Shown here in pieces: positions 27,829-58,394 of a DNA stretch of 64,000 nt. The notes beneath the pieces are model-generated. The model was not told where the DNA came from, did no database searches, and saw nothing but the letters and a program-made list of their open reading frames with translations. Position 1 is the stretch's first letter. Each line of letters begins with the position of its first letter. The position numbers were made by a program, and so were the translations under genes. Source of the stretch: Candidatus Multivorans sp. (GTDB lineage Bacteria > Acidobacteriota > Thermoanaerobaculia > Multivoradales > Multivoraceae); the NCBI GenBank assembly GCA_965238135.1, contig OZ250177.1:541744-605743 (forward strand), read 5' to 3'.

Positions 27829-27950
27829 ATAGGCACCGTAGCCAACTGGCTGGCCGGACGTGGAAGCAGCCGTCGAGAAGGCCACGGTCTGGGCGCGGAG
27901 GGGCTTCGGATCGTGGAGCGTCCGCCGGTGTCTTCGAAGGGAAGGGTCGA

Positions 27951-28376
27951 CTACGTTCGTCGCTTGCGCAGGATGGAGTCCACGAAGCGGAGAACCGTGG
28001 CCCGTTCGTCGGCGTCGAGTTCCAGTATCTGTCGAACCAGCACGACGGTTGAGTTACGCCGCTGTGCGTCCGACGGGTCCCCGTCGGTGGGAACCCAATG
28101 TGCCCAGGCCGCTAAGGTCTGAAAGTTCAGCCCATAGAGGTCGGCTAGTTCCAGGAGCACGATCGGGTCGGGCTGTCTGATTAGGCCCCGTTCGATCTGG
28201 GACAGGTATGCGTTGGATCGCCCGATGCGTCGTTCTACCTCGCGAAGAGACAGTTGGTAGTGCAGGCGAGCGCGGCGCAGAACGCCACCCACCTGCGGAG
28301 GATCTTGGCGGTGAGTGCGATCTGGCTTAGCCGGGGACCGGGCGGTCGCTGATCTACGGGAAGCGTGATCGGTCAT
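27951..28376 (-). CDS. XRE-family HTH transcriptional regulator with C-terminal extension, divergent from the TRIP13-SMODS operon
   Basis: HTH segment LSLREVERRIGRSNAYLSQIERG followed by a ~70-aa C-terminal domain. Start uncertain (28376 or 28490). Confidence 0.65.
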   Translation of the reverse strand: MTDHASRRSATARSPAKPDRTHRQDPPQVGGVLRRARLHYQLSLREVERRIGRSNAYLSQIERGLIRQPDPIVLLELADLYGLNFQTLAAWAHWVPTDGDPSDAQRRNSTVVLVRQILELDADERATVLRFVDSILRKRRT

Positions 28377-28601
28377 GGTTCTGGGGCCGCTACGACCGAG
28401 GAGCCCGGGAGCCGCAGTGTGTGTGTGTCGAGCGACCCGGCGTTTCGGTTGTTCCGAGCGCGATCCTCTCGGTGCGAGAGGGGCTCGCATGGCTTCGCGG
28501 CTGTCCAGCGCAGGCGACGCTCGCCCTTCCGCCGCCGGGGGAGTTCCAGTCGGTGGAGCCGGGGGTTGCGGTCGATCGGAATGCGAAGTAGAGTTGCACC
28601 T

Positions 28602-29522
28602 ATGCAAACCAGAAGCGCAAATGGGCTGATGGCGGAGTCGGTACGCGTCGTGCGCGTGATGCCAGATCCGGCGTACGCGGGCCTATGGGACTCGATTGTA
28701 GTGGATGCCTCGGTAAAGGACCGGCTGCTCCGAGCGACAGTGTTGAATCTCCGGCTACGCGCCGAGCTGCCGTTCGAGACGACGGCGCTGCACGGGCTCG
28801 TCCTGCTGCATGGACCGCCAGGAACGGGCAAGACGACGTTGGCGCGCGGGCTGGCCCAGGAACTGGCGAAGATCACGGCGGACCGTAAGGCTCGACTGGT
28901 CGAGGTCAACCCGCATGGTCTCATGAGCGCCGAACATGGGGAGAGCCAACGAGCGGTAACGCAACTGCTTACAGAGTACGTGCCGAGCCTTGTTGACGAC
29001 GGGATGGCAACGGTGGTTCTCCTCGACGAGGTCGAGTCGATGGCCATCGCGAGGAGTGAAGCGTCGCTGGGCGCGAATCCAGCAGACGTGCATCGAGCGA
29101 CGGATGCAGTGCTGGCGGCGCTCGACTTGAATACGACGGAGGTCCCCAATTTGGTCTTCGTGGCGACGAGCAACTTCGTCGACGCGCTGGACGAGGCATT
29201 CTTGTCGCGGGCAGACGTCCATATCTGCGTCCCGGCGCCGGATTCTGCGGGGATCGTGGAGATTCTGAAGCACGCGTTTCGGTCGATGGCGCCGGCTTTT
29301 TCCTGCCTCGGCGAGTTGGCCTCCGACCCTCGACTCAAAGAGGTCGCAGGGCGTCTGGCGGGCGCGGACGGCCGACGAGTCCGCAAGACGATCATGGAAG
29401 CGATGTTAGGGCGCCAGGAGACGGTACTGGATCCGGGAAGCACAACGATCGATGATCTGCTCGCGGCGGCGACGCGGGTTATGGAGAACAGCGACATCGA
29501 GCATGGAAGCTCGGAGGGCTGA
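28602..29522 (+). CDS. TRIP13/Pch2-like AAA+ ATPase (CBASS Cap6-like)
   Basis: Walker A [23 protein letters not shown]. The blocks [69 protein letters not shown] align closely with conserved TRIP13 blocks ([22 protein letters not shown] / [21 protein letters not shown] / VLIDEVESL / [30 protein letters not shown]). Start could be 28581-28629. Confidence 0.8.
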   Translation: [306 protein letters not shown]

Positions 29523-29523
29523 A

Positions 29524-30018
29524 ATGGAGCGACAGAGGACAATCGCCGCGTCACCGGTTCGGAGCGCCGCCGAAGCGTGGGACGTTGTAACTACACTGAT
29601 CGCAGAGACGCTTGAGCGCAGCCCTGAGGTCCCGGATGGGAGCGTAGCCGAGGAGTTTGCGGCGCTGGAGGGGCTGGGCCCGGCTCTCATCGCGGCCGGG
29701 CATTTGGAATCGGACGGCCTGGTGCTCTGCGACGATGGCCTGCATGTGACGATTCGGGTCTTGACCGCGGATGCGGCACTCGCAGTCAAGGAGAATCTCA
29801 ATCCCGTGCCCGGTGGCGGGCGTGCTTCGGGTGCGTGGATCCTCTATCTACCTTCGCCCGGAGCACTCGAAACGAGCGTGGCCGGCGCGGCGAAGCGGTC
29901 TGCGCATCTATCTGTAGACGCACCGCCGAAGTCGGCGCCGTTGGCAAAGGGGAAGAAACGGGAGGCAGGTTCGGTCATTGATCTGGGCGCACTCCGCAAG
30001 GCGACATCGAAATGGTGA
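29524..30018 (+). CDS. Small protein of unknown function (164 aa), translationally coupled between TRIP13-like ATPase and SMODS; candidate HORMA-domain protein
   Basis: GGAGGG RBS overlapping the TRIP13 stop. No recognisable motifs; basic disordered C-terminal tail (PPKSAPLAKGKKREAGSVIDLGALRKATSKW). HORMA assignment is inferred from context only. Confidence 0.5.
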   Translation: MERQRTIAASPVRSAAEAWDVVTTLIAETLERSPEVPDGSVAEEFAALEGLGPALIAAGHLESDGLVLCDDGLHVTIRVLTADAALAVKENLNPVPGGGRASGAWILYLPSPGALETSVAGAAKRSAHLSVDAPPKSAPLAKGKKREAGSVIDLGALRKATSKW

Positions 30019-30518
30019 CATCGACCTCGGTCTCGACCTATACGCGCACTCATACGGCTACGCACTTGGCGGACGTCATTCTGGGCTCGATTGCCGACAT
30101 CTTGGGAACGCTTCGCATTGATCCCACGCGGCTGTTTGCGGATTGGGAGACGGATCAGGCGGCCATCTCGAACTGGATTGCGGAAGGCTCGCTCAAGTGC
30201 GTCGCACTCGAATGCCACCGCCCGGACGGAACGGTGAACCCGATCTTCGAGTTCCCGCTGTCGTACACGGGCACGGGGCCGGGGAATCGGAAGTTCACGG
30301 CTGATCGGGCCGCGCTGGCACGCTATCTGGCGAAGCTGCAGCTAGTGCCGGCTGGAACTACATATCGCCTCTTCTGCAGCTTCAATGGACCCCATTCGGT
30401 GCAGGCGGGATGGTCCCCTGGGACAAGGGCGTCCGTTGGGGGCCTGCGCTCGGTGAGCTTTGGGACCCTCGCTGCCGGACCGCACGCCGGCGCGGGAATG
30501 CGCTACTACCGAAAGTAG
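30012..30518 (+). CDS. Small protein of unknown function (168 aa), translationally coupled (ATGGTGA overlap); candidate HORMA-domain protein (Cap7-like size)
   Basis: Overlaps the previous ORF's stop by 7 nt. Gene-like codon usage. No sequence motif recognised. Confidence 0.5.
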   Translation: MVTSTSVSTYTRTHTATHLADVILGSIADILGTLRIDPTRLFADWETDQAAISNWIAEGSLKCVALECHRPDGTVNPIFEFPLSYTGTGPGNRKFTADRAALARYLAKLQLVPAGTTYRLFCSFNGPHSVQAGWSPGTRASVGGLRSVSFGTLAAGPHAGAGMRYYRK

Positions 30519-30526
30519 GTGAGAGG

Positions 30527-31384
30527 ATGAGCTACGTCGACGACGCGTTCGATAAGTTGAAGTCGAATCTCGAGATTACGAAGACCGAGAGCCACCAGGC
30601 GCAGATTCGGCACCAGTTGGTGCGCGAGCACATCGAGGCCTCGTGGGAGTTGGTGGAGCATTTTCTCACCGGCAGCTACAAGCGACACACCAAGACGAAG
30701 AAGCTGAAGGACGTCGACATATTCGTCGTCGTCGATCCAGAGGGGCCGCAGGCCGCATTGGCTGACGGTACGGGAACGGCGGCTGTGCTTGCGTTGCACG
30801 ACTTACTGGCCGAACGCTGGAACGATCTGGGCGCCGACGACAACGTGGTGACGATCCACTATGGCGACGAAGACGTCGCGTCGTACGAGGTCGCTCCGGT
30901 CTTCCCGCGAAGCGGTGGCGGCTATTCGATGCCCAACGGCGTGGCGTGGATGGACACCGACCCGCAGGAGCAAGCGGAGCTCGTGACGGTGAAGAACAAG
31001 GAGTGCGACGCGAAGTTCGTGCCCTTTGTGAAGATGGTCAAGGGAATCAACCGCGAGGCAGGAGACCCAATCGAGCCCGCGTTTCTGATGGAGGTGATGG
31101 CGCTGGACCTTGTGGTAGAGCCGTTTGGCCGGTACAGGGACGAGATCAGGTTCTACCTGGCTTCGGTCGCGGACCAGATTACCGACGACTGGCGGGATCC
31201 AGTCGGGCTTGGTCCGGACGTGAATGCCCGGATGGGGGCCCGCCGTCGGAAAGAGCTGTCGGAGATTGTGCGCGGGTGGCTGGGTGTCGCCGAGGAGGCG
31301 TTGCAGCTTGAATACGAAGGCAAAGAACGGGCGGCGGTAGAGGCGTGGCGCGAGCTGTTCGGCTGGCGCATGCCGAGGCCATGA
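30527..31384 (+). CDS. SMODS / CD-NTase-family nucleotidyltransferase (cGAS/DncV-like cyclic-oligonucleotide synthase)
   Basis: Hallmark pol-beta NTase active site GSYKRHTKTKKLKDVDIFVVVD (GS...[DE]h[DE]h) plus a downstream acidic triad residue in VTIHYGDEDVASYEVAPV. 285 aa. GGTGAGAGG RBS 8 nt after the preceding stop. Confidence 0.8.
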   Translation: MSYVDDAFDKLKSNLEITKTESHQAQIRHQLVREHIEASWELVEHFLTGSYKRHTKTKKLKDVDIFVVVDPEGPQAALADGTGTAAVLALHDLLAERWNDLGADDNVVTIHYGDEDVASYEVAPVFPRSGGGYSMPNGVAWMDTDPQEQAELVTVKNKECDAKFVPFVKMVKGINREAGDPIEPAFLMEVMALDLVVEPFGRYRDEIRFYLASVADQITDDWRDPVGLGPDVNARMGARRRKELSEIVRGWLGVAEEALQLEYEGKERAAVEAWRELFGWRMPRP

Positions 31385-40358: not shown

Positions 40359-42206
40359 CTAGTGCTTGGAAGCTGCGCTTCGTCGGCGTGTCCGTTTGAG
40401 CCCTTGGAGCAAGCGAAGTGTCTTCTGGACATCGGTCGGCACAACCTTCATGTTCTCGACGATTGCCTCTGGAGTCAGGTGCGACGGGAACTCCTTCGTC
40501 TGCAGCCAACCTCTCAAGCCGCTCAGAACCTTCTTCGCGTCGCCCCACCTTGGCAATTGCTCGTCGTCGAGTGGCACCTGCTTTCGGGCTTGCTCCATCG
40601 CTGTTGCGAGGGCTAAGCGACGGTCTTCTTGGTGGATTCGCTCGGCGACTCTCTCCCAGATTCGCTGCCGCTGATCGCCTAACAGGCGATCCCATTCACG
40701 CGCGAAGCGACCCCGCAGCCTTCTCCAGACGCCTTTCTTGTTGGCTGCGGCGGCCTGGGAGTCGAGCAGTCGCAGAACAGCATCGCGGTCGAGCAAGTAG
40801 TTCTCTAGCTCGTTCTTCTCCCAGAGCACGAGCCGGAAGTCGAGTTTGTAGGCTTCGCTCTTGGAGCGCTTGTTGCGATCAAGTAGGGCCCCCCGCCTCG
40901 CCCTGTCGGTTCGGTAGTCGCGATCACCGATAGCGACGAACTTCATCGGTGCAGGGCTGTCCAGCACCGGGCTGCTAGCGATGTCGCGGACCTGACGCGC
41001 CAAGTCGAGGACCCGGGCCTCAATCGGGCCTTGGTAGGTGTACAAGAACGTCAGGTCTCGCCAGATGGCCTGTTGTTTCTTGGTGCCCCAGTGCTTGCGT
41101 GCGAACGCCTCGATCAGCTTGCGGTCGCTCTTGTTCTCGACGAAGACCACCGCGCGATTCACGAGCAGGGGCACCAGTTCCATCTGGTCCATAGCGCCGA
41201 GATCACCTAGCAGTTGGAGTTGCTCGGGTTGTACCGACAATGGCACGGCTCGGCCGTCCATGCAGACCCGAACAGAGCCTGCCGGCGCCGAGTTCAGGAG
41301 TTGGGGCGAGTGGGTGGCGAGAACGAACTGCTCCTCTTCCTCGACTGCCAGACGCTGCAGGATGCCCATCAACTGCCCCTGAAGGCGCGCGTGGAGGTGA
41401 GCGTCCGGTTCATCCAGGAGGAACATCGCTGCCCCTGGCGCTAGGACGGAAGCCAGGATCTGGAGAGCTTGGTGGAATCCGGATCCGGCAGTGATCACGT
41501 CTCGCTTGCGTCGCAGTGCCTTGTCGCGATAGCTAGCTTTCAGGAAGCGGTCGATGTCAAGGTTGAAGTCGACCTCGATGCTGCTCTCGGGAAACAGCTC
41601 AGCCAATAGCGCCTGGAGTTTCTTCCACTGGTGCGGTTCGTCCTGCTGGAGATGCCAAAGCTGGTTGCGGACCATTTCGCCGTGCCGCTGTAGACGTAGG
41701 CGGTCCTGCCGTGCTGGCGGCGTCAGGTACTCCTCCTGCGGCAGGAAGCCGGCGAAGATGGGAATCAGTCGGATCTCGCGACGGTGGATAGCTTCTTGCC
41801 AGGCCCCCTTTGTGCTCGGCTGGATGCTGAAACGGTTGTAGCTGATGCGAATCTGAAACGCGATCTCAGCGCCGCTTGCGAACATAGCCTTGAGCGAAAT
41901 GGGTCTCGGTTTCGACTGGTGGGTGATCAGCCCGTCGGGCCAGAGATCGCCTGGATGAGCGGCCGGCAACGCGCCGAACTCGTCGAAACCAACGGTTCGG
42001 CTGGAGAGTGCGAGATCGGCGGAGTCTCGCCCGTTGCCGTTGAGTTTGCGAGTTGTCTCGATGCAGTACTGGAACAGCGTCAGGGCCTGGAGGATGGTCG
42101 ACTTGCCGCTGTTGTTGGCACCGACGAGCAACGTGATGTCCTCAAAGTCGACGCTCGTCGCGTCGCGGAAGCGCTTGAAGCCCTTGATCGTGAATCTGCG
42201 GAGCAT
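40359..42206 (-). CDS. OLD-family ATP-dependent endonuclease (AAA_21/ABC ATPase + Toprim), stand-alone (class 1 OLD / fused PARIS-like)
   Basis: Walker A LLVGANNSGKSTIL, Walker B MFLLDEPDAHLH, C-terminal Toprim-like segment VVFVENKSDRKLIEAF...FVAIGDRDYR. 615 aa. No adjacent UvrD-like helicase. Confidence 0.72.
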   Translation of the reverse strand: MLRRFTIKGFKRFRDATSVDFEDITLLVGANNSGKSTILQALTLFQYCIETTRKLNGNGRDSADLALSSRTVGFDEFGALPAAHPGDLWPDGLITHQSKPRPISLKAMFASGAEIAFQIRISYNRFSIQPSTKGAWQEAIHRREIRLIPIFAGFLPQEEYLTPPARQDRLRLQRHGEMVRNQLWHLQQDEPHQWKKLQALLAELFPESSIEVDFNLDIDRFLKASYRDKALRRKRDVITAGSGFHQALQILASVLAPGAAMFLLDEPDAHLHARLQGQLMGILQRLAVEEEEQFVLATHSPQLLNSAPAGSVRVCMDGRAVPLSVQPEQLQLLGDLGAMDQMELVPLLVNRAVVFVENKSDRKLIEAFARKHWGTKKQQAIWRDLTFLYTYQGPIEARVLDLARQVRDIASSPVLDSPAPMKFVAIGDRDYRTDRARRGALLDRNKRSKSEAYKLDFRLVLWEKNELENYLLDRDAVLRLLDSQAAAANKKGVWRRLRGRFAREWDRLLGDQRQRIWERVAERIHQEDRRLALATAMEQARKQVPLDDEQLPRWGDAKKVLSGLRGWLQTKEFPSHLTPEAIVENMKVVPTDVQKTLRLLQGLKRTRRRSAASKH

Positions 42207-42493
42207 CTTCTTTGTCTATTGGCGGTTGTCAGCGGGGCGCCCGGGTCAGTTGCTCGAGGCTCTGCGCTGACGACCGAGAGTTCCCCAGCGCAGAGCCAGA
42301 GCCGGTCACTGGCCGGTGCGTCTCTGGCGAGTGAATCCTACGGCAACTCGTAGCTTCATGGAGCCTCCGGAGGTCGGGCACGGCTCCGTTTCCGCTATCG
42401 TCGTCGCAGACGTATGGAAGCGGGCGACGGAGTTCTTCGCGTGCCATCGGAAGGCCGGCGGTTGAACCCGGCGTCGATACAGGAGCCAAGCTC

Positions 42494-46834: not shown

Positions 46835-47637
46835 TGGCTGGCCGCAGCCAAGCCCGCTTTGCTGGCGTAGCGGTCGCGCTGTTGCTTTTCCTGCCGGCCG
46901 CAGCCATCGGGCAAACCGCGGAGGGACCGGAGAACCCGTACACCAGCAGCGTCGACGCCCGGATGGGAGCACGGCAGTACGGGTTGAGATGCGTCAGTTG
47001 CCACGGGCTGCTCGGCACCGGGGGAGAGGAGGGCGACGGCCCGGACCTCACGACCGGGCGATTCCGGCACGCGACGACGGACGCCGGGCTCTACCGGGTC
47101 ATCCGGAATGGCGTCGAGGGCACCTCGATGCGGGGCTTGCGGCGCGCCAAGGACCAGGTGATCTGGCAGTTGGTCACCTACCTTGGTTCGCTCTCGGATG
47201 CCGTCGATCTTGCCTCCCTTCCCGGGTCGGTGGAGGCCGGCAGGGAAGCGTTCGAGCGTTTCGACTGCGGCCGCTGCCACATGGTTCACGGCCGCGGCGG
47301 CCGTCTCGGTCCCGATCTGTCGAGGGTCGGCGAGCGGCGCAACCCCACAGAGTTGGTTGAGGACCTGACGGAACCGAATGCCGAGGTCGCGCCGCGCTGG
47401 TGGACGCTGCGGGTCACGCGCGCCGACGGCGCCGTGATCGAGGGCCTGAGAATGGGCGAGGACACCTTCAACCTGCGGATCATGGACGGTGACGACGAGC
47501 TCCGATCCTTCTCGAAGGCGGCGGTTGGCAAGGTCGAGCGGATAGAGGAATCGTCGATGCCGGTGGAGCCGCTTTCGGACGAAGAGCGCGACGACCTGGT
47601 CGCCTATCTGTCCTCGCTTCGGAGGAGCGAATCGTGA
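46835..47637 (+). CDS. Diheme c-type cytochrome (likely electron acceptor for the downstream PQQ dehydrogenase)
   Basis: GTG start 3 nt after the SDR stop. Signal peptide FAGVAVALLLFLPAAAIGQ. Two CxxCH motifs (CVSCH, CGRCH). Confidence 0.75.
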
Positions 47638-49271
47638 GGTGGCTCATCGCGGCGCCGGCCATCCTGCTGCTGGCCTCCGCGCCGGTCCTCCTGGCCCAGG
47701 AAGGGGTGGGTGAGGGAGGACCGGTGCTGTCGCCGGTGACCTGGGATCGGCTGTTGAACTCGGACGACGAGCCGCACAACTGGCTGATGTACCACGGCGC
47801 CTTGCATGGGCAGCGTTTCAGCCGCCTCGACCAGATCGACCGCGAGAACGTCGGTCGGCTCGAACTGAAGTGGGCCCACCAGATCCGGCAGCTCGACCGG
47901 AACGAGACGACGCCCCTGGTGGTCGACGGCGTGATGTTCATCACCGAGTCGCCCAGCAACGTGACCGCCGTCGATGCGGCGACGGGGCGCCCCTACTGGC
48001 GCTACGAACACCCGGTGCCGGATGACATCCGGGTCTGCTGCGGTCGCAACAACCGGGGTGTCGCGATCCTGGGCGAGACGCTCTACATGAGCACGAACGA
48101 CGCCCACCTGGTGGCGATCGACGCGCGCTCCGGCTCCCTGCTGTGGGAAACGGAGGTCGAAGAGCACACGAAGGGCTACAGCAAGACCTCGGCGCCGCTC
48201 GTCGTCGGCGACACGGTCGTTACCGGCATCGCCGGTGGCGAGTACGGCATCCGCGGCTTCATCGACGGCTACGACGCCGCGACCGGCGAACGTAGGTGGC
48301 GTACCTACACGGTCCCGGGCCCTGGCGAGCCGCACAACGACACCTGGGCGGGTGACTCCTGGCGTACGGGCGGCGCGCCGACTTGGCTCACCGGCGTCTA
48401 CGACCTGGATCTCGACCTCATCTACTGGGGCACAGGCAACCCGGCGCCGGACTGGAACGGCGACCTGCGGCTCGGCGACAATCTGTACTCGTCGTCGGTG
48501 CTGGCGCTCGACGGGAAGACCGGGAAGATCGTCTGGCACTTTCAGTTCACGCCCCACGACGTCTGGGACTGGGACGCGATCCAGGTGCCGGTGCTGGCTG
48601 AGGTTGAAGTCTCCGGCGAGCCGATGAAGGCGATGCTGTGGGCCAACCGGAACGCCTTCTACTACCTGCTGAACCGGCAGAACGGCAAGTTCGTGCTCGG
48701 GGAGGCGTTCGCCATGCAGAACTGGGCCGACGGACTCGACGAGGAAGGGCGGCCGCTGCTGCGCGAGAACGTGTTTCCGACCGAGGAGGGCACCCTCATC
48801 GCGCCGATGGCCGGCGGCGCCACGAACTGGTGGTCGCCGGCCTACAGTCCGCAAACGGGGCTGCTCTACGTGAACGCCTTCGACGGCGAGGCCATCTACT
48901 ACCAGCGTGACGACGAGTACGTGGAGGGCAGCAACTTCCTCGGCGGCGGCATGCGAATGGCAAAACCGACCGAGCACTACCAGAGCGCCATCCGGGCGGT
49001 CGAGGCTGTGACCGGCGAGGTGCGCTGGGAGTTCCCGATCACGCCGAGAACCCGCAGCGGCGTCCTGGCCACGGCCGGCGGCCTGGTCTGGAGCGCCAGC
49101 GTCGACGGCTACTTCTTCGCCCTGGACGAGGAGACCGGGGAGCCGCTGTGGCGGATCTCGCTCGGCGCCGCGCCGCACGCCTCGCCGATGACCTACGCGG
49201 TCGGCGGCGAGCAGCGGGTCGTGGTGGCGATGGGCAACGTCGTCTTCGTGTTCGGGCTCGCGGACGAGTAG
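47634..49271 (+). CDS. PQQ-dependent alcohol/methanol dehydrogenase family quinoprotein (type I, XoxF/PedH/ExaA-like)
   Basis: GTGA overlap with the cytochrome stop. Signal peptide. Vicinal disulfide CC (DIRVCCGRNNRG). Propeller W-motifs. Active-site region TPHDVWDWDAIQ with D-x-D. Confidence 0.85.
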   Translation: MRWLIAAPAILLLASAPVLLAQEGVGEGGPVLSPVTWDRLLNSDDEPHNWLMYHGALHGQRFSRLDQIDRENVGRLELKWAHQIRQLDRNETTPLVVDGVMFITESPSNVTAVDAATGRPYWRYEHPVPDDIRVCCGRNNRGVAILGETLYMSTNDAHLVAIDARSGSLLWETEVEEHTKGYSKTSAPLVVGDTVVTGIAGGEYGIRGFIDGYDAATGERRWRTYTVPGPGEPHNDTWAGDSWRTGGAPTWLTGVYDLDLDLIYWGTGNPAPDWNGDLRLGDNLYSSSVLALDGKTGKIVWHFQFTPHDVWDWDAIQVPVLAEVEVSGEPMKAMLWANRNAFYYLLNRQNGKFVLGEAFAMQNWADGLDEEGRPLLRENVFPTEEGTLIAPMAGGATNWWSPAYSPQTGLLYVNAFDGEAIYYQRDDEYVEGSNFLGGGMRMAKPTEHYQSAIRAVEAVTGEVRWEFPITPRTRSGVLATAGGLVWSASVDGYFFALDEETGEPLWRISLGAAPHASPMTYAVGGEQRVVVAMGNVVFVFGLADE

Positions 49272-49353
49272 CACGGCGACCCTGCTCATCGGCGACGCGC
49301 TGGACGCGGCCGACGGCGTTGTCGACGGGTCGGCCGGCTGTCCCACCGTCTCG

Positions 49354-49746
49354 GTGACGAACGGTTTGCCCGACCAGGACGCGCTCGCCCGCGTGTTCGC
49401 CGATCCGAACTGCTTCAGCTTCCAGGAGATGTTCCCGGGCGGCTTCCAGCCCGTGTTCGGCGGCGAACGAACCGACGCTTCCCTGGTCGGCGGCGTGCGC
49501 GGGTACACCGCCTCGGGGACGATCTGGGACGTGAGCGTCAGCGCCCATCTGGTCGACCTGGAAGCCGCGGCCACGCTCGACGCCTCGACCCGGCTCGTGA
49601 TCGGAGGCCGCAATGCGCTGGACGAAGCCGCGGACCGCAATCCGAATCCGACTGTGATCGGCAACCTCTACAGCACGCGTGCTCCGTTCGACATCAACGG
49701 CGGCTTCTACTACGCCCGGTTGCAGTACCGCTGGGGCGGGGGCTAG
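49354..49746 (+). CDS. Hypothetical protein (possible gene remnant), no signal peptide
   Basis: 130-aa ORF with strongly gene-like GC3. The frame is open upstream into the PQQ-ADH 3' end with no better start. Ends ...FYYARLQYRWGGG. Confidence 0.3.
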   Translation: MTNGLPDQDALARVFADPNCFSFQEMFPGGFQPVFGGERTDASLVGGVRGYTASGTIWDVSVSAHLVDLEAAATLDASTRLVIGGRNALDEAADRNPNPTVIGNLYSTRAPFDINGGFYYARLQYRWGGG

Positions 49747-49832
49747 CAACCAGCGGTTGTCGCTCCGACCCTGGGAACGCGGGCGTCTCGCCCGCATCCG
49801 GCGTGAAGCGCTGGCTCGGTTGGCGCTAGCTG

Positions 49833-50840
49833 CTACAAGTCAGCGCCTTCAGGCCGGGGTCCGCGTTCGTTTGCGGCGCAGAGTTCCAGGAACTCCGCTT
49901 CGCTCCGGCACCTGAGCGCGGCGCGAATCAACTCGGCCACCGGTACCTCCCCGAGTTCCAGGAGCCGGACCTTCAGGGCGGGCGTGGTCGGGATGCCGCG
50001 CTCCCTGAGGACTGCCGTCACCGTCTCGTAGCCTGTCTCGGATCGTATCTCGGCCCGGCCCTCGTCGCGGTGGCGGCGAAGCCATCGATCGTCGTCCGGA
50101 CCGGTGCCTTCCGCGGCGCCAAGGGCTCTCCCGACGCGATGCAGTGCGGCCTCCGTCGAGGCCGACATCGTGTGCTCGTTCAGCGCTCGGTGGATCTCCT
50201 TCGCGGTCCAACTGGGGAAGGCGCGGCTGGTTCGCGCGGTGCGGAAGCGGCCTCCTTCGAGAACATGGATCATAAGTCCCGAGACACGAGACTTCGGCCG
50301 GCTCGGCGACGGCGCGTCGGGCACGTCGACCCAGACCTCGGGGAAGCCACACGCTTCGTACAGCGGCAGCTTGCGTACCCTGACATCGGTCGAGTAGTCG
50401 ACCTCCAGGATCACGTCCGGCAGAGCATCGCCGTCCACGTCAACCTTCGGGGTCAGTTCATCGGCTGGCGGTGGGTGCAGGTAGAGGATCTGGTCGGCCT
50501 GCATCAGGACATGAGGTCTACCGCCAGCATCGAACCGTACGAGGTCTGTCGTCCCGTACGCCTCGATCGGCGATCCGCGTTCCGCAGCCAGTCGTTCCGA
50601 CAGCTTGGCGAGCCGGTGTGACGGGCCTTCGTGGAACCGCGTGGTCGGTTCGCCGACGACCATCGCCGTTTCGGTGCGCGCCTCCCAGTACTCGAGGCGG
50701 CCCTCGTAGTCCTCGATGTCTTCGAGTGGAATGTGAACCGGCCGGCAACCGGGGAAGTCGGCCGGATCGAGCGGCGCCGCTTCCGGGTCGCGCTCTTCCT
50801 CCGACGGCGACAGCGTCGCCGTGTGCGCGGGCTCAGCCAT
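49833..50840 (-). CDS. Uma2-family (DUF820) PD-(D/E)xK endonuclease-like protein with C-terminal extension
   Basis: Core DVILEVDYSTDVRVRKLPLYEACGFPEVWVVD (D...E.K region) typical of Uma2/DUF820. Start at 50840 (alternative 50870). Confidence 0.65.
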   Translation of the reverse strand: MAEPAHTATLSPSEEERDPEAAPLDPADFPGCRPVHIPLEDIEDYEGRLEYWEARTETAMVVGEPTTRFHEGPSHRLAKLSERLAAERGSPIEAYGTTDLVRFDAGGRPHVLMQADQILYLHPPPADELTPKVDVDGDALPDVILEVDYSTDVRVRKLPLYEACGFPEVWVDVPDAPSPSRPKSRVSGLMIHVLEGGRFRTARTSRAFPSWTAKEIHRALNEHTMSASTEAALHRVGRALGAAEGTGPDDDRWLRRHRDEGRAEIRSETGYETVTAVLRERGIPTTPALKVRLLELGEVPVAELIRAALRCRSEAEFLELCAANERGPRPEGADL

Positions 50841-50937
50841 GGCGGTGATCCTATCGGGCCCGAGGACCATGGCTGAACCACTACACCTCCATCTTCGCCT
50901 GTCCGTGACGGGAGAGCTGCTGGGATCCTGCTTGGCC

Positions 50938-51600
50938 CTATGCTGCGATTCTCGGCTCCTCCGCCGAGAACGCCTTGTCGGCTGACTCAAAGCGCGTATG
51001 GAGCTCATCGAGACGGTGGGTGAAGTCCATGGTGCCCGTCGTCTTACGGTCCGTCCAGTACTTCCCCGTGAGAGTGGTTGGTCGAAGCCGCGGCCCATGC
51101 GTCCCGACGACGATGGCTCCATGATGCATCTCGCTGATCCGCTCGTTACGCAGATGAATGTTGGGCTCGTTGGCGTAGACACCGATCACTTGGAAGCCCT
51201 CTCCGTTGGGTGACGGTTGCACATGGCTGGCGATGAAGGACGACTCCGACTCAGGTGTCATGAGGTGCATCTGAAGAGTCGACAGCGTCTGCTTCACCCC
51301 CATGTAGCAGAGGATCGTTGGGATTGTCTCGCCCGTGTCGGGATCAATGTAGCTGGACTGAAGTTCGACTCGCCAAGTGCCTCGTAGATCCGGTCTGTTG
51401 ACAAGCCAGCCTTGCAGAAAGGACTGCCGCCAAGCGTAGCGCTCGAAGAGAAAGCCAAGCGAGACCAAAACTCCCACGACGCTGGAGAAGGGCGCGGCGT
51501 GATCCCAAGAAACAGGGGTGCCGCGAGCCACCAACACGGTGGACCATACGATCGCGGAGATTCCGACAAAAACGGTGATGTGGAGGCGCTCAAGCCTCAC
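50938..51600 (-). CDS. N-terminal 2-TM + C-terminal beta-rich domain protein; candidate membrane effector of the adjacent SMODS gene (Cap15/S-2TMbeta or SLATT-like)
   Basis: GTG at 51600, 3 nt after the SMODS stop (translational coupling); alternative ATG at 51666 overlaps SMODS. TM helices ITVFVGISAIVWSTVLVA and FSSVVGVLVSLGFLF, then a ~150-aa region rich in alternating hydrophobic residues. Lies in a lower-GC islet. Confidence 0.55.
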   Translation of the reverse strand: MRLERLHITVFVGISAIVWSTVLVARGTPVSWDHAAPFSSVVGVLVSLGFLFERYAWRQSFLQGWLVNRPDLRGTWRVELQSSYIDPDTGETIPTILCYMGVKQTLSTLQMHLMTPESESSFIASHVQPSPNGEGFQVIGVYANEPNIHLRNERISEMHHGAIVVGTHGPRLRPTTLTGKYWTDRKTTGTMDFTHRLDELHTRFESADKAFSAEEPRIAA

Positions 51601-51602
51601 GA

Positions 51603-52258
51603 CTAGCGTGCTCCCAGGTAGGCCCACGCGGCATTGATGAAGGCGCGTGCCTGGACCGGTGTCCACGGTTGAGACTGTGCAAAGAGGAGCTTAACTTTGT
51701 CGACCTCACGCCACGTCTGCCAACTCGATCCGCTGTCGATCTGGGTCCCGAGATACCCCAACACGGCTCCGAGTCGGGCATACCAGCCGTAGCGATCGAA
51801 ACAGGTGTCGGGAGCGTTCCAGGTCAAGCACTCGAGGAGGTATCCTGGGATCGACTGAGCGGCAGGATGGCCGGCGTCGTCCAGTTCGCTGCGGAGATTC
51901 TTCAGGATGCGCACCAAACCACGGTAGCGCCGATGTGTGCGATCGTTCTTGTCGCGTCCGTTCTCATAGTGCTCCTTTGGCCACGAAGCGAAGAGTGCCT
52001 CCGGGTACTGTCCAACGCCGAGAAGGCGTCCGTGTAGAGCACGCCGACGTCTACATCACTATCGGCCCGGACGTTTACACGGTTGCGATAGGAACCCTGA
52101 ACGAAGACACGGACAGAGTGCGAGCGCAGCTTCGGACCAAGTACAGCGTGGCGGTCTATCGCGTTCCTGATGATCCCAACAGCGTTGTCGCAGCGAGTCT
52201 GCTCAGTCGAGCCTGGCGACTGAGCAGACTGCGTGAAGGTAGTTTCCCAGTCCGGCAT
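51603..52258 (-). pseudogene. SMODS/CD-NTase nucleotidyltransferase with an apparent +/-1 frameshift near 51990
   Basis: N-terminal frame encodes ...VRVFVQGSYRNRVNVRADSDVDVGVLYTDAFSALDS (GS...DxDh NTase motif) then runs into non-protein-like sequence and a stop. A second frame continues ...PEALFASWPKEHYENGRDKNDRTHRRYRGLVRILKNLRSELDD...AWAYLGAR* to 51603. Either a genuine pseudogene or an assembly/sequencing indel. Confidence 0.65.
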
Positions 52259-52560
52259 TCTTCGGGGCCTCTATAGATGCACTGGCAAGGTATCGTCGGT
52301 CCGGCTAGCGTGATCCGTACGTCCGAGAGAATCCTCTGGAGGTGACCTGCGTTGGTCATAGCCCGGTGGGCGCAAGGAGTATGGTCGCCGCTGCACGACA
52401 TCGAGCCGGCGCTCGGCGCTGGAGACTATGGTCGCTGCTGAACGTGGTCAAGCGAGTTGGCCCACCGCCGTGGCGATCCGACTTTCGTGTCTCGTCCGCA
52501 TGGATGTCGTTGAAGAGAGGTCCCGGTTCGCCGGACGGCAGTTGGTCTGACTGGCCGCGT

Positions 52561-55500
52561 TCACGAACCCCGCAGCGCCGGAGCGCCGTGTGGGATGTTC
52601 AGGCCGGCGCTCCGCGACGCTTTCCGGCGCGCACGCATCGCCCGGCGGCGTTCGCGTCCGCGCTCGACCAGCAGGTAGAGCGAGGGCACGAAGATCAGCG
52701 TGATCAACGTCGAGGCGAGCAGGCCGCCGACCACGACCCGCGCCAGGGGCGCCTGCAGTTCGGCCCCCTCGCCGATTCCGAGGGTAAGCGGCAGCAGGCC
52801 GAGCGCGGTGGTCAGCGTCGTCATCAGGATCGGCCGCAGGCGGCGCCGGGAGCCGCGGATCAGCGCCTCGTGGAGGGTGCAGCCGACCTCCCGGCGCATC
52901 CGGTTCACGTTGTCCACCAGCACGATCGCGTTGTTGACCACGATGCCGACCAGAACGACGAGGCCGAGGAAGGAGTTCATGTTCAGGGTGGTGCCGGTGA
53001 TAGCGAGCGTCAGGAGCACACCGAGAAGGGAGAACGGCACCGCGGTCATGATCACCAAGGGCTGGACCAGGGACTCGAACTGGACCGCCATCACGGTGTA
53101 GACGAGGAAGACCGCAAGCAGCACGCCGATCACGAGTTCCAGGAACACCTGGCGTTGCTCCTCGAGTTCGCCGCCCATGTCGATGGTGAAGCCGTAGGGT
53201 GTCTCGACCCGCGCCAGCGCGGCCTCGACGTCGTTCGCCACGTCGCTGAAACGGCGGCCGTCGATGCCGGCCAGGACCTGCATGATGCGCTGCTGGTTCT
53301 CACGGTTGATGGACAGCGGCCCCTCCCCGGGTTCGATGCTCACGATCGAGCCCAGGCGCACCACGTCGCCGTACGGGGTGACGATGGGCAGTTGCGGTAG
53401 CTGCTCGAGGCGCAGCCGGTCCTCCGGCTGGAGCTGGACCCGGATGTCGAACTCGTCGCCCTGGTCGCGGAACCGCGTCGCCACGCGCCCGAGGATGTAG
53501 TGCTCGACCGCGTCGGCGACCTGGCTGCCGTTCAGACCCAGTTCGGCCAGCCGGGCGCGATCGACCCGCAGCGTGCGTTCGAGCTGGCCGGCCTCGCGGT
53601 CGAGGCGGGGGTGGACGACTCCCGGAACTGTCGCCATCGCGTCGACCACGCGCTGGGCGAGCTCGTTGCCCTGGTCCAGGTCGTGGCCGCGGATCTCGAC
53701 CACCAGGCGGGCGTCCTGGCCGCCGCGCATCATGCGCATCATCATGTTGCTGGAGGAGGCGTAGAGTTCGATGTCGGCTGCCGGCACGTCGGCGATCGCG
53801 CGGCGGATCGACGCCACGATCTCGTCCTGGCCGCGACTCCGCTCGGTGATGGGGGTGAGCAGGATCTCCATCGTGCCCTGGTTGGACTGGGCGGGCCGCC
53901 ACCAGCTCTCGGGCCCGGCGGTGGTGAGCAGATTGTCGAGTTCTTCAGGCTGCACGGCGCCGCGGACCCGCGCCTCGATCTCAGCCATGGTGGAGGTGGT
54001 GACGTCGAGCGGCGAGCCGACCGGCATCTCGACCTGCATGTTGAGGCGGCCCTCGTCGCTTTCGGGCATCAACTCGAGCCCGATCACCGGCACCAGGGTG
54101 AAGGACCCGAAGAGCAGCACGACGGCCGTGGCCAGGACCAGGCCGGGCCGGCCGAGGGCCCACTTGATCATGCGGCCGTAGGCGAGGTCGACCGGACCGA
54201 GGGCGGCTACGCGTTCGTCGTCGGTTCGGCGGCTTGCCGGCACCTTGCGCAGCCACCTCGCGGCCGCCGCGGGAATCAGGGTCAGGGCGACGAATAGTGC
54301 GCACAGCAGCGAGAAACTGACCGTGATCGCCAACTGGTTGAAGAAGATGCCGGCGAACCCGGAGATGAAGACCACGGGCAGGAACACGGCCACGGTGGTC
54401 AGGGTGCCGGCGGCGATCGCCATCGCCACCTCGTTGCTGCCGGCGATCGCCGCGGCGGTGGGGCGTTCGCCCTCGTGGAGCCGGCGGTAGATGCTCTCGA
54501 GCACCACGATCGAGCCGTCGACGAGCATGCCGATCCCGAGTGCGATGCCGGCCAGGGAGATGACGTTCAGCGTGAAGCCGTTGAAGTACATCAGGGCGAT
54601 CGTGGCCAGCACCGAGATCGGGATGGCGGCGCCGACGATCAGGGTCGCCCGCAGGTCACGGAGGAAGAAGAAGAGCACCAGGACTGCCAGCGTGGCGCCG
54701 AACATCGCCCCCACCTGGACGTTGTTCACGGCTTGACGGATGAAGGCGGCGCTGTCCATGAGGATCGAGATCTCGGCTCGGCCGGCGTAGTCGCGATTGA
54801 TCGCGTCGATCTCCCGCTTCAGCCGGTCCACGACCTCGACCGTGTTCGAGCCGGACTGCTTCTGCACGAACATCCGCATGCCGGGCGCGCCGTTGATCCA
54901 GAGCTCGTTCGTCAACTCGCGGATGCCGTCTTCGACCCGCCCGACGTCGCGCACGAGGATCGGGCGCCCGTCACGGATCGCGACGATCGTGTTCTCGACA
55001 TCGACCTTGCGCTCGAATTCACCGATCGTACGGATGAGGACCTCGCGCCCCGTCTCGAGCATGTCGCCGGCCGAGACGTTGCGGTTCTCCCGTGACAGGG
55101 CCATCGTGACCTCGCTGGGTGTGATGCCGAGCGCGGCCATCCGGTCGGCGGCGAGCTGGACCTGGATCTCCCGCACCCGGCCGCCCTGGATGTCGACGGC
55201 GGCGACCCCTTGCAGGCGCTCGAGGCGGCGGCTGATCGTCTCCTCGGCCAGGTGGCGGATCTGGCGGGCGTCTCCTGCGCCGGAGAGGCCTAGGAAGACG
55301 ACGGGCATGTCCGAGAGATTGAACTTGAACAGGGTCGGCGCGGAGGCGTCTTCCGGCAGCGTGCCGCGTACGAAGTCGAGCTGCTCGCGGATGTCGTTCA
55401 CGACCTCGTTCAGGTCGACTCCCCAGTCGAACTGGGCCTGAATGCTGCTCATGCCCTCCGCGGACATGGAGCTCAGTTGGTCGAGGCCGGTGACGGTGGC

Positions 55501-55713
55501 GAGGGCCTGCTCGACCGGCCGCGTGATCAGGGTCTCCATCTCCTCGGGCGCCACGCCCTCGTAGGTGGTGGTGACCGAGATCCGGGGCATGTCGACCTCG
55601 GGCATCAGGTCGACGGCGAGTTGGCGAGCGGCGACCAGGCCCAGCACGGCGATGCAGACGTAGAGCATGCCGACGCCGACCGGACGGTTGGCGGAGAGAC
55701 GGGGGAGGTTCAT
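52561..55713 (-). CDS. RND-family efflux transporter permease (AcrB/CzcA-like, 12 TM)
   Basis: 1,050 aa. N-terminal MNLPRLSANRPVGVGMLYVCIAVLG; duplicated 6-TM + periplasmic loop structure; conserved RND motifs. Confidence 0.92.
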   Translation of the reverse strand: MNLPRLSANRPVGVGMLYVCIAVLGLVAARQLAVDLMPEVDMPRISVTTTYEGVAPEEMETLITRPVEQALATVTGLDQLSSMSAEGMSSIQAQFDWGVDLNEVVNDIREQLDFVRGTLPEDASAPTLFKFNLSDMPVVFLGLSGAGDARQIRHLAEETISRRLERLQGVAAVDIQGGRVREIQVQLAADRMAALGITPSEVTMALSRENRNVSAGDMLETGREVLIRTIGEFERKVDVENTIVAIRDGRPILVRDVGRVEDGIRELTNELWINGAPGMRMFVQKQSGSNTVEVVDRLKREIDAINRDYAGRAEISILMDSAAFIRQAVNNVQVGAMFGATLAVLVLFFFLRDLRATLIVGAAIPISVLATIALMYFNGFTLNVISLAGIALGIGMLVDGSIVVLESIYRRLHEGERPTAAAIAGSNEVAMAIAAGTLTTVAVFLPVVFISGFAGIFFNQLAITVSFSLLCALFVALTLIPAAAARWLRKVPASRRTDDERVAALGPVDLAYGRMIKWALGRPGLVLATAVVLLFGSFTLVPVIGLELMPESDEGRLNMQVEMPVGSPLDVTTSTMAEIEARVRGAVQPEELDNLLTTAGPESWWRPAQSNQGTMEILLTPITERSRGQDEIVASIRRAIADVPAADIELYASSSNMMMRMMRGGQDARLVVEIRGHDLDQGNELAQRVVDAMATVPGVVHPRLDREAGQLERTLRVDRARLAELGLNGSQVADAVEHYILGRVATRFRDQGDEFDIRVQLQPEDRLRLEQLPQLPIVTPYGDVVRLGSIVSIEPGEGPLSINRENQQRIMQVLAGIDGRRFSDVANDVEAALARVETPYGFTIDMGGELEEQRQVFLELVIGVLLAVFLVYTVMAVQFESLVQPLVIMTAVPFSLLGVLLTLAITGTTLNMNSFLGLVVLVGIVVNNAIVLVDNVNRMRREVGCTLHEALIRGSRRRLRPILMTTLTTALGLLPLTLGIGEGAELQAPLARVVVGGLLASTLITLIFVPSLYLLVERGRERRRAMRARRKASRSAGLNIPHGAPALRGS

Positions 55714-55723
55714 CTGCTAGTCC

Positions 55724-57118
55724 TCAAGGCCCGGCAGCGCCGGCGGGGGAGGCTCCGCCCGGCGCCTCGTTCGCGTTGACCACCCGTACCGGAGCGCCGT
55801 TGCCGAGCTGCGCGTGTCCCAGCGTCAGCACCAGGTCGCCGGCCTCGAGGCGACCGTCCACCGCGCTGAACTCGCCGGAGCGCCCCGCGACGGTAACGGC
55901 CCGCCACTCGGCCAGGCCGTCGACCGGCACCAGGACGCCGACCGAGCGGGCGCCATCCATTGCCACCCGCTCGAGCAGGGCGGCGCCGGGGATGATCAGC
56001 GCGTCGTCCAGGTCGCGCAGGCTGACGGAAACATCCGCGTACATGCCGGGCCGCAGTAGTTCGTCGGTGTCCGCGAGTTCGCCCTCGACCAGGACGGTGC
56101 GATCGTTGCGGCGAACCTCGCCGGCTACCCGCCGCACGAATCCAGAGAAGATCTGCTCGCCCGTGGCCTCGGTCGAGACGTCGAAGGCCGCGCCGGCCTG
56201 AACAGCGGCCAGATCGCGTTCGGGCACCCGGAACTGGACCATCAGCGGCGCCTCCTCGACCAGGCGGAGGATCGGGGTTCCTGGCTGCACCAAGGCGCCC
56301 CGGTCGAGGTAGCGGTCGGCGACCACGGCGTTGAACGGGGCGCGCACGCGGGTGTTGGCGAGCTGCTCCGCGAGCTGCGCCTCGCGCGCCGCGGACTGCC
56401 GGACCTGGGCTTCGGCGGCGGCCAGGTTCGCCTTCGCCGTCCCGTACTTGGAAGTGACCTGCTGCTGTTCCTGCTCCGAGAGCAGGCTCTGGTCGTAGAG
56501 CTCCATCGCCCGTTGGTAGTCCGCCTCGACGCCGATCAGCTCGGCAGCCGCGCGGTCGCGGTTCGCCTGGGCGACGCCAAGCTGACCGCTGGCCTCCTGG
56601 AACTGACTCTTCAGGTCGATGTCCTCGATCACGGCGAGCACGGAGCCGGCCGCTACCCGCTGGCCGATTCGGGTGGGCATTTCGACCAGCAGACCCGAGA
56701 CCTGGGGCGAGATGTCGGCGACCTCGCCGACCAGTTCGCCGGAGTAGGCGGTGCGCACCGAGAGGTGTCCCCGGCGGGCGGCCTCGGCGCGCACCGGCAC
56801 CGCCTGGGCCAGCGCGGCGTCGGCGCCGGACAACGCCGACCCGGACTGCGGCGAACGGCCCAGGGCGATGACGGCAGCCGCGGCCAGAACCACTGTTCCG
56901 GCCACGCCAACGGCGACCCAGGGGCCGCTGATACGGCGCCGGGGCCTTGCGGGGGGGCGGGCGCCGGCCGGGACAAAGCCGCCCGCGGCGGGGTCGAAGC
57001 GCTCGGCGCCGCCGGCGTGCCCCGACTGACGGGGCGCGTTGGCTGTCGGTCCAGCGGCTGCTCGGGAGCGGGGCGGCACGGGGCCGGTTCCAGCTCCTCC
57101 GGGTCTGACTATCGCCAT
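55724..57118 (-). CDS. RND efflux periplasmic adaptor (membrane fusion protein, HlyD family)
   Basis: N-terminal TM anchor WVAVGVAGTVVLAAAAVIAL, coiled-coil region, biotinyl/lipoyl-like and beta-barrel segments (VTVAGRSGEFSAVDGRLEAGDLVL...). Confidence 0.85.
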   Translation of the reverse strand: MAIVRPGGAGTGPVPPRSRAAAGPTANAPRQSGHAGGAERFDPAAGGFVPAGARPPARPRRRISGPWVAVGVAGTVVLAAAAVIALGRSPQSGSALSGADAALAQAVPVRAEAARRGHLSVRTAYSGELVGEVADISPQVSGLLVEMPTRIGQRVAAGSVLAVIEDIDLKSQFQEASGQLGVAQANRDRAAAELIGVEADYQRAMELYDQSLLSEQEQQQVTSKYGTAKANLAAAEAQVRQSAAREAQLAEQLANTRVRAPFNAVVADRYLDRGALVQPGTPILRLVEEAPLMVQFRVPERDLAAVQAGAAFDVSTEATGEQIFSGFVRRVAGEVRRNDRTVLVEGELADTDELLRPGMYADVSVSLRDLDDALIIPGAALLERVAMDGARSVGVLVPVDGLAEWRAVTVAGRSGEFSAVDGRLEAGDLVLTLGHAQLGNGAPVRVVNANEAPGGASPAGAAGP

Positions 57119-58274: not shown

Positions 58275-58394
58275 AGCGGTCGCCGCTCCGCGGCGCGCTG
58301 TTGCCCGCGGGTCAGAACCCGGGTGGCGCGATCCGCGCCACTCGTGAACCAGTCCGTGCGCCCGTCATCGGGCGCACGGATGGCAGACCCGCGG

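Follow-up and report, generated by a model that had tools for sequence, protein, structure and literature searches.

In the canonical cyclic oligonucleotide-based anti-phage signalling system (CBASS) formed by CdnE and Cap15, CdnE, a clade-E cGAS/DncV-like nucleotidyltransferase (CD-NTase), is activated in phage infection and makes a cyclic dinucleotide, often one that contains uracil (PMC10442399, PMC10419184). The beta-barrel of the effector Cap15, a receptor for uracil-containing cyclic dinucleotides (PMC10419184), binds the dinucleotide, and Cap15 oligomerises by way of its two transmembrane helices and disrupts the inner membrane (PMC10419184, PMC10442399); the outcome described in the literature is that the cell dies before phage release. 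LpCdnE, EfCdnE and ClCdnE are cyclic-dipyrimidine synthases encoded beside Cap15 in type I CBASS operons (PMC10442399). The type I-B CBASS of Staphylococcus schleiferi (Ssc-CdnE03 and Cap15) is protective, and its cyclase is activated by phage RNA and makes cyclic GMP-AMP (cGAMP) (PMC10686824). In Panoptes, the effector OptE is restrained by its ligand, showing that S-2TMbeta effectors can work with the opposite ligand logic (PMC12657218). In this study, we analysed a CdnE-Cap15 locus in a 64-kb stretch of contig OZ250177.1 of Candidatus Multivorans sp. (the window). All coordinates are positions in the window, the genes of the cassette lie on its minus strand, and L- and P-numbers denote compared loci and proteins, respectively.

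The locus is very probably a decaying type I CBASS (CdnE and Cap15) with an orphan Cap15, and not a working or novel system. Compared with the CdnE and Cap15 operons of Cecembia lonarensis, Enterococcus faecalis and Legionella pneumophila (PMC10442399), it has the same gene order and the GS...DxD motif, but it lacks the segment equivalent to LpCdnE 77-171, including Asp139, and its cyclase frame is shifted in the window record. Like the S. schleiferi system, it pairs a clade-E cyclase with Cap15; there, however, the system is intact and Cap15 disrupts the membrane after cyclase activation, a step that would be impossible in the window locus. It resembles Panoptes OptS-OptE (PMC12657218) in that the gene of a Cap15-family 2TM/beta-barrel effector comes after a short gene resembling a synthase, and that the genome has a CBASS as well, but here the upstream gene is a truncated CD-NTase without a complete active site and not an mCpol (Cas10 palm-like). 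We rejected membership in Panoptes, as the upstream gene is homologous to CD-NTases over its whole retained length. Cap15 also persists in relatives without a synthase, where a ligand-restrained, Panoptes-like logic would be lethal, and by this analogy Cap15 here would have the canonical positive logic. A literature search on orphan or decayed CBASS effectors found nothing relevant.

Lesions of the cyclase gene

Translation of the minus strand from 52258 to 50938 showed two adjoining coding regions. The first-pass annotation, made from the sequence alone, had placed a nucleotidyltransferase (NTase) motif on this strand, and the open reading frame (ORF) 51902-52258 does carry GSYRNRVNVRADSDVDVGVLY. 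The best PDB matches of the remnant were LpCdnE (7.7e-38), EfCdnE (1.1e-35), ClCdnE (6.5e-32), EmCdnE (6e0m) and RmCdnE (6e0k), and the intact homologue P0003 was also best matched by the LpCdnE/EfCdnE/ClCdnE group (6.3e-53). The PADLOC Cyclase model PDLC00801 matched at 3.8e-66 in two separate stretches, with residues 92-216 corresponding to positions 169-293 of the 295-position profile. A search with SMODS PF18144, proposed earlier as a check, gave no match to the remnant: the Pfam scan of the reconstructed 218-aa product returned NTP_transf_2 alone, at E=0.037 and under its cut-off. Most intact homologues are annotated with PF26305 CD_NTase_C only. The identity of the cyclase therefore rests on the PADLOC models, the homologues and the PDB CdnE matches, not on Pfam SMODS, and by these matches the upstream gene is a clade-E CD-NTase (CdnE).

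The N-terminal part of the remnant starts MPDWETTF...GSYRNRVNVRADSDVDVGVLYTDAF, keeps the GS motif and DVDV, matches LpCdnE residues 4-76 and is 78-80% identical in nucleotides to the intact genes in L001 and L003. After ...VLYTDAF, reading resumes in another frame as ...YPEALFASWPKEHYENG... and runs to the stop at 51603-51605. This second-frame translation reads ...GQYPEALFASWPKEHYENGRDKNDRT...AWAYLGAR, matches LpCdnE 172-292 and has 74% identity to P0003. The product aligns solely to these two stretches of LpCdnE, and the equivalent of LpCdnE 77-171 is gone. DNA alignment showed that positions 6230-6510 of L001 have no counterpart in the window, and the best 120 of 1298 homologues are 304-357 aa long, compared with at most 216-218 aa for the joined pieces of the window.

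The missing segment contains 23 of the 89 columns conserved at ≥95%, including the RGNK and (E)AD..P motifs, which correspond to the Asp124-Ala126 loop and Asp139 of LpCdnE. In that enzyme, Asp139 is a ligand of catalytic metal A, and Asp124-Ala126 form the acceptor-phosphate loop (PMC10442399). The third catalytic Asp (EAD motif, LpCdnE Asp139) lies within the deleted 91 codons and the catalytic set is incomplete, so the locus lacks the complete CD-NTase of a type I CBASS. In the AlphaFold2 (AF2) model of the 216-aa product, the predicted local distance difference test (pLDDT) score was 41-54 over residues 50-100, the active-site region, and about 90 in the C-terminal helical domain; the model holds just two strands, and three core strands are gone. 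Cyclic nucleotide synthesis is predicted to be absent, given the loss of the metal ligand and the acceptor loop and the low confidence of the modelled core.

In intact relatives, TACCC stands at both edges of the missing segment, encoding Tyr-Pro in ...FFxxYP DG... and in ...VNYP EALF, which suggests that the deletion was mediated by microhomology between the two copies. Of the 66 conserved columns that were retained, a single one deviates (W11S), and for this reason the deletion appears to be evolutionarily recent.

The frame switch reported in the first-pass annotation is real and falls right after ...VLYTDAF, but its position is 52016-52020 and not about 51990. We compared the window with the circular contig ctg495886 of ENA ERZ26167216 (4,448,627 bp, 24x) and found no mismatches and one gap over 20.6 kb, the single gap being CGGCG at 52016-52020. 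Without these five nucleotides, ctg495886 has a continuous 216-aa ORF, P0121 (...VLYTDAFFGQYPEALF...), which runs codon-for-codon with the FFGxYP of the homologues and has neither the third catalytic Asp nor the greater part of the beta-sheet core. The 4,448,661-bp NCBI/ENA record of the same chromosome has the split version, with the 103-aa fragment P0123. The earlier reading had left a choice between an inactivated cyclase and an assembly indel, and had held that a continuous NTase ORF would reveal an assembly error. The five nucleotides behind the frameshift are indeed absent from another public assembly, but the 273-nt deletion is in both, and the continuous ORF that exists in the alternative assembly is still without the third catalytic Asp. 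Inactivation itself thus stands, with a deletion of about 91 codons that had been missed as its cause; on sequence comparison, the inactivating lesion is this deletion and not the frameshift, the catalytic core being gone with or without the 5-nt insertion. The "minimal" appearance of the module was an artefact of the same internal deletion.

The frameshift, which is irreproducible between assemblies, could be an artefact of the consensus or a true allele, whether minor or major. The same metagenome holds a related strain that is about 5x more abundant (114x vs 24x) and has a different breakpoint about 50 nt away. This strain, ctg495894, carries a deletion of 551 nt. The CGGCG insertion forms a 5-bp inverted repeat, ACGCC-TTCTC-GGCGT, and would be compatible with a templated (quasi-palindrome) mutation. 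Elsewhere in the N-terminal coding part of the remnant, at 52196-52230 (-), lies a perfect 14-bp inverted repeat with a 7-nt loop (AGTCTGCTCAGTCG-CCAGGCT-CGACTGAGCAGACT). In intact homologues, a base-by-base comparison by eye showed pairing at just 6-7 or so of these 14 positions. The nearly invariant Trp11 codon has changed from TGG to TCT inside one arm of this repeat, which looks like a palindrome-perfecting templated change.

These results bear on automated annotation. Defence finders based on hidden Markov models (HMMs) could call an active type I CBASS here, with the cyclase at 3.8e-66 and the effector at 1.2e-64, though the catalytic core is gone, and the frameshift that is seen by eye is neither the inactivating lesion nor reproducible between the two public assemblies.

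The Cap15 effector and its islet

The downstream GTG-started ORF had been described correctly, except for its spacing: the GTG at 51600 lies 2 nt, not 3, from the cyclase stop, and the ORF encodes 220 aa. Pfam Cap15_CD_rec (PF18153) matched at 49.6 bits against a cut-off of 31.2 (E=6.1e-13), and Cap15_TM was sub-threshold (13.6 vs 28.2 bits). The PADLOC CBASS 2TM effector model PDLC00694 (208-position profile) matched residues 4-212 at 1.2e-64, and all 17 PADLOC matches at E<=1 were "2TM" CBASS effector models. The protein aligns over its full length with Cap15 proteins that are paired with intact cyclases (71-75% identity). It deviates at 4 of 79 family-conserved columns (W121S, R128Q, T143A, Q160H), the mean for the other members being 1.5.

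Two N-terminal transmembrane (TM) helices and a beta-rich C-terminal domain had been proposed for this protein, and both the hydropathy peaks and the AF2 model agree. Kyte-Doolittle values over 19 residues peak above 1.6 only at about residues 14-19 and 43-44, and the model (pLDDT 82.5) has helices at 6-25 and 32-58, an eight-stranded barrel and a C-terminal helix. The best Foldseek match was the Cap15 receptor domain of Yersinia aleksiciae (7n34/7n35), with probability 1.00, a TM-score of 0.82-0.85 (target-normalised) and a root-mean-square deviation of 2.9-3.1 A. The C-terminal domain superposes on that structure, and the two TM helices and eight-stranded barrel are shared, but sequence identity is only 21-22%; a sequence-level PDB search with Cap15 gave no match. 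By sequence and model, the downstream protein is a Cap15/S-2TMbeta effector. A SLATT effector was rejected, since the Pfam scan contained no SLATT family at E<=1. The architecture given earlier, SMODS-SLATT or Cap15, is thereby narrowed to a two-gene CD-NTase plus 2TM/beta-barrel effector of the Cap15/S-2TMbeta type.

The cassette lies in sequence of lower GC content than its flanks, as had been noted, but the figures of about 55% against about 70% were too far apart: we measured about 60% against 67-70%. In 300-nt bins, GC was 0.58-0.61 over 50,900-52,400 and 0.65-0.73 on either side, and the lowest-GC bin of the window is 51-52 kb (0.596 vs 0.665 overall). In all eight hosts examined, the cyclase-Cap15 cassette is 2-9 points under its flanks in GC.

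The islet is bounded by the stop of a resistance-nodulation-division (RND) permease gene (52561-52563) and by the convergent stop of a TonB-receptor remnant (49744-49746). The more distant relatives L048-L053 have the same synteny, with the RND permease stop, about 13 nt and the convergent TonB-dependent receptor stop, and none of the NTase, Cap15 and Uma2-like genes is present between their RND and TonB genes. Homology to L052 stops at 52565 and restarts at 49742. In keeping with its earlier description as an islet, the cassette was acquired horizontally. We found no convincing direct or inverted repeats flanking the islet, nor a convincing duplication of the target at its ends. Within the islet, cap15 is directly downstream of the cyclase in the same operon, there is no Cap2/Cap3, HORMA/TRIP13 or other ancillary gene, and the neighbours are the RND permease and Uma2-like genes. 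The Uma2-like gene is missing from the empty sites, and other genes lie downstream in the intact cassettes L001 and L002; judged by this distribution, it belongs to the islet and is not a conserved CBASS partner.

The leader, about 160 nt long, runs from a promoter-like block to the ATG at 52258. This block is the only conserved upstream block, with 86% identity over 50 nt to L001, and is also found in L002-L005, the closest intact cassettes; a sigma-70 consensus scan did not call it (-10 hexamer 3/6). The block (GCTTGACC...GCGACCATAGTC, 52424-52453) is repeated directly, at 77% identity, 47 nt downstream (GCTCGATG...GCGACCATACTC, 52377-52406), and the copy could be a duplicated promoter or one of a pair of operator sites. 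A riboswitch or other known RNA in the leader was rejected, as Rfam over 49500-52800 gave just a chance microRNA match (E=0.91).

On the other side of the islet, the 130-aa ORF at 49354-49746 (+), whose last residues are ...GGFYYARLQYRWGGG, is what remains of the C-terminal part of a TonB-dependent receptor, so gene decay extends to that side too. L048-L051 have the complete receptor (890 aa); in L008, L009 and L052 it has decayed in part.

The window genome is about 95% identical on its backbone to L008 (OZ251997.1, "MAG: Candidatus Multivorans sp."; Acidobacteriota, Thermoanaerobaculia; MAG, metagenome-assembled genome). L008 lacks window positions 51968-52518 and has a 103-aa C-terminal cyclase fragment left, and in L009-L011, which come from three other samples and were built with other assemblers, the absence of 51664-52518 takes out the whole cyclase. 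Cap15 is full-length in L008 and L009-L011, with 1-2 substitutions, and the promoter-like block was deleted in all of them along with the cyclase. The deletions of L008 and L009 have a common left breakpoint at about 52506-52518, beside an imperfect hairpin, and the leftmost 40-50 nt or so of the islet are also common to them. Sequential deletions or a hairpin-associated hotspot are both possible explanations of this breakpoint. The sister genomes form a stepwise decay series (internal deletion, loss of the N-terminal two thirds, cyclase gone) with the effector intact each time. The value of this series is modest, but it could serve to study the dismantling of abortive-infection cassettes and to ask whether effectors that depend on a ligand survive as harmless orphans.

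Among the lineages there are 8 differences in the 364-nt NTase fragment, 3 in cap15 (663 nt) and 3 in the Uma2-like gene. All 8 NTase-fragment differences fall within 51771-51957, a cluster that would fit the edge of a recombination tract as well as relaxed constraint, the sites being too few to decide. The islet is 99.3-99.7% identical between lineages, compared with 93-96% in the flanks. Over 47000-56250, however, sliding identity to L008/L009 is mosaic: it exceeds 99% at 47.0-49.0 and 49.8-51.8 kb, is about 91-96% in between (49.0-49.75 kb) and ranges over 86-99% in the RND operon. Recent transfer specific to the islet (cassette mobility) was rejected, as the >99% tract also spans 47.0-49.0 kb; the mosaic pattern indicates recent homologous recombination between co-occurring lineages.

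In other genomes, the pair is usually kept together, which makes the window's lineage an exception. A full-length NTase lies within 2 kb of Cap15 in 33 of 36 species-representative loci, and 30 of these abut Cap15; in the three exceptions, the cyclase is split (L044), reduced to a C-terminal fragment (the Multivorans genome) or absent (L035, Terriglobia). Cap15 is downstream in 58 of the 59 metagenome loci that have a full NTase and enough downstream sequence, 52 of them in canonical form. No internal NTase deletion was present among 80 metagenome loci found through the cyclase, where all shortened NTase matches except L095 (matched residues 16-305) begin within 30 nt of a contig end. The two or three deletion events are no statistical case for targeting of the cyclase or protection of Cap15.

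Variants of the cassette were also observed. L003:991-4356, L004:773-4138 and L023:1288-4633, from two metagenomes and another Ca. Multivorans MAG, hold a nested CBASS composed of CdnE-1 (309 aa), a 219-nt gap, CdnE-2 (292 aa), Cap15a (235 aa) and Cap15b (212 aa). A second complete CdnE and Cap15 operon thus occupies precisely the space that separates the first cyclase's stop from its Cap15 start, and the window genes are closest to the outer pair. At L005:2084-2962, in a sister sample of L003, the inner cyclase has a TAC>TAG nonsense change at codon 103 (3 substitutions in 879 nt in total) and is another knocked-out cyclase beside intact effectors. An independent orphan Cap15, intact and of 213 aa, lies at L035:4001-4642 in a Terriglobia MAG; it has no CD-NTase within 4 kb upstream, a transporter gene that ends about 280 nt before it, and a serine-recombinase-like fragment after it.

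Weighing the explanations

The course of events that we favour would start with an islet of about 2.8 kb inserted in the 13-nt spacer between the convergent RND-permease and TonB-receptor genes, bringing a minimal type I CBASS operon (CdnE and Cap15) and the Uma2-like gene. The 273-nt in-frame deletion took the conserved RGNK acceptor-phosphate loop, the third of the Asp residues that bind metal and the bulk of the beta-sheet core, and close relatives have deleted more or all of the cyclase, keeping Cap15. The locus could then produce no signal, and Cap15 would be an orphan effector that stays silent and is tolerated, since an effector that needs a ligand for its activation does no harm when that ligand is absent; taken together, this suggests recent and ongoing decay of a defence cassette. 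Some observations pull the other way. The uninterrupted 216-aa ORF of the alternative assembly and the promoter-like block upstream of it leave room for a non-catalytic role. In addition, Cap15 is intact in at least three lineages with different cyclase loss, which could reflect selection and not lack of time, and the divergence of the islet (3 differences in the 663 nt of cap15) is too low to measure constraint.

Selection for the orphan Cap15, which would then answer a cyclic nucleotide from elsewhere (e.g., from a CdnD-type cyclase) or follow a ligand-independent or inverse (Panoptes-like) logic, seems unlikely to us. It would account for the finding that the window, L006, L008 and L009-L011 all keep a full-length Cap15 in spite of three states of cyclase loss, the orphan Cap15 of L035 is a further instance, and opposite ligand logic is possible for S-2TMbeta effectors (PMC12657218). 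However, an inverse-logic effector should be toxic without its inhibitory ligand, and an intact cap15 needs no selection when the islet differs by less than 0.5% between lineages. The promoter-like block has also been lost with the cyclase in L008 and L009-L011, and the 4 deviations of Cap15 at family-conserved columns exceed the mean of the other members. The same window does hold a complete second CBASS as a possible source of ligand, but this has its own 4TM effector and a CdnD-like cyclase. CdnD enzymes make cyclic trinucleotides. Cap15, by contrast, is a receptor for uracil-containing cyclic dinucleotides (PMC10419184), and cross-talk from the type III system to Cap15 was judged unlikely, given the CdnD-like cyclase and its own 4TM effector. 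That Cap15 was kept as a stand-alone listener after repeated cyclase loss, activated by the other CBASS or by a phage- or neighbour-derived signal, is in our estimate quite unlikely; if true, it would show that effectors can be re-wired in nature from one cyclic-nucleotide defence system to another.

It is highly improbable that the 216-aa in-frame protein is a neo-functionalised mini-NTase, whether as a sensor or regulator of Cap15 without catalytic activity or as a minimal cyclase whose active site is arranged differently. The ORF is uninterrupted in ENA ctg495886, 65 of the 66 conserved positions that remain are unaltered, the model gives the C-terminal helical domain a pLDDT of about 90, and the stop-start spacing to cap15 is preserved. 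Nevertheless, the protein has lost three core strands together with the RGNK loop and the third catalytic Asp, and its active-site region is modelled below a pLDDT of 50. No comparably short form occurs among the best 120 of 1298 homologues, and no internal deletion among the 80 metagenome loci, whose shortened matches other than L095 sit at contig ends; the sister lineages delete the cyclase entirely, and the gene is frameshifted in the other public record. An assembly artefact, in which the cyclase would truly be full-length, the system functional and the lesions products of mis-assembly or polishing, is extremely improbable. The two public chromosome versions do disagree at the 5-nt site, and reads of the 114x sister strain (vs 24x), whose structure differs about 50 nt away, could disturb the consensus. 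The 273-nt deletion is nevertheless in both versions, independent assemblies from other samples and assemblers (L008, L009, L010 and L011) are also without cyclase sequence at the site, and a microhomology of 5-8 nt would be too short for assembly collapse.

Coordinates and neighbouring features

Table 1. Features of the CdnE-Cap15 islet and of the second CBASS in the window.
Feature	Position	Strand	Remarks
Inserted islet, ~2.8 kb	49747-52560	-	Leader, CD-NTase remnant, cap15, Uma2-like gene; empty site in relatives
Putative operon promoter	52423-52451	-	TTGACC (52446-52451), 17 nt, TAGTCT (52423-52428); conservation only
CD-NTase remnant, both parts	51603-52258	-	ATG start 52258, stop 51603-51605
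CD-NTase pseudogene, N-terminal part (codons 1-79)	52022-52258	-	Translation; helix alpha1, GS motif, first two catalytic Asp (GSYRNRVNVRADSDVDVGVLYTDAF)
5-nt insertion CGGCG (minus-strand reading)	52016-52020	-	Inside codon 80; shifts frame
CD-NTase pseudogene, C-terminal part	51603-52015	-	...GQYPEALFASWPKEHYENG...AYLGAR; other frame than N-terminal part in window record
Junction of 273-nt (91-codon) in-frame deletion	51999-52007	-	At TACCCGGAG (Y-P-E); reads CAG TAC CCG GAG
cap15, intact 220-aa S-2TMbeta effector	50938-51600	-	GTG start 51600, TAG stop 50938-50940; TM1 ~51526-51585, TM2 ~51427-51507, beta-barrel ~51010-51399
Uma2-like gene (putative restriction endonuclease fold), 335 aa	49833-50840	-	PF05685 E=1.6e-5, under its cut-off
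CapP-like peptidase ORF	23041-24189		Upstream of type III CBASS
4TM effector	26833-27828	+	
TRIP13-like ATPase	28365-29522	+	
Two HORMA proteins	29452-30018 and 30012-30518	+	
Type III CBASS cyclase	to 31384	+	Closest P. aeruginosa CdnD (6p8u/6p82, 1e-38)

The first-pass annotation had also counted two cyclase systems in the window, which our results bear out: a complete type III CBASS occupies 26833-31384 (+), about 20 kb from the cassette (Table 1). An AAA_15/AAA_21 ATPase gene at 40359-42215 (-), in a low-GC patch (0.61), gave weak to moderate matches to the NsnB, AriA, AbiLi, Old and GajA models and is probably another defence gene.

A further element lies at 58315-58385, near the TMEM220/MarR genes. 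It is about 71 nt long, resembles a repetitive extragenic palindromic (REP) sequence or a miniature inverted-repeat transposable element (MITE), and has two perfect hairpins (CCGTGCGCCCG-ATGA-CGGGCGCACGG and GTGTGGCGCG-GGT-CGCGCCACAC). Copies are found at L008:11824-11894 and L009:7763-7833, at the right edge of the islet (corresponding to 49774/49775), a place where the window has none.

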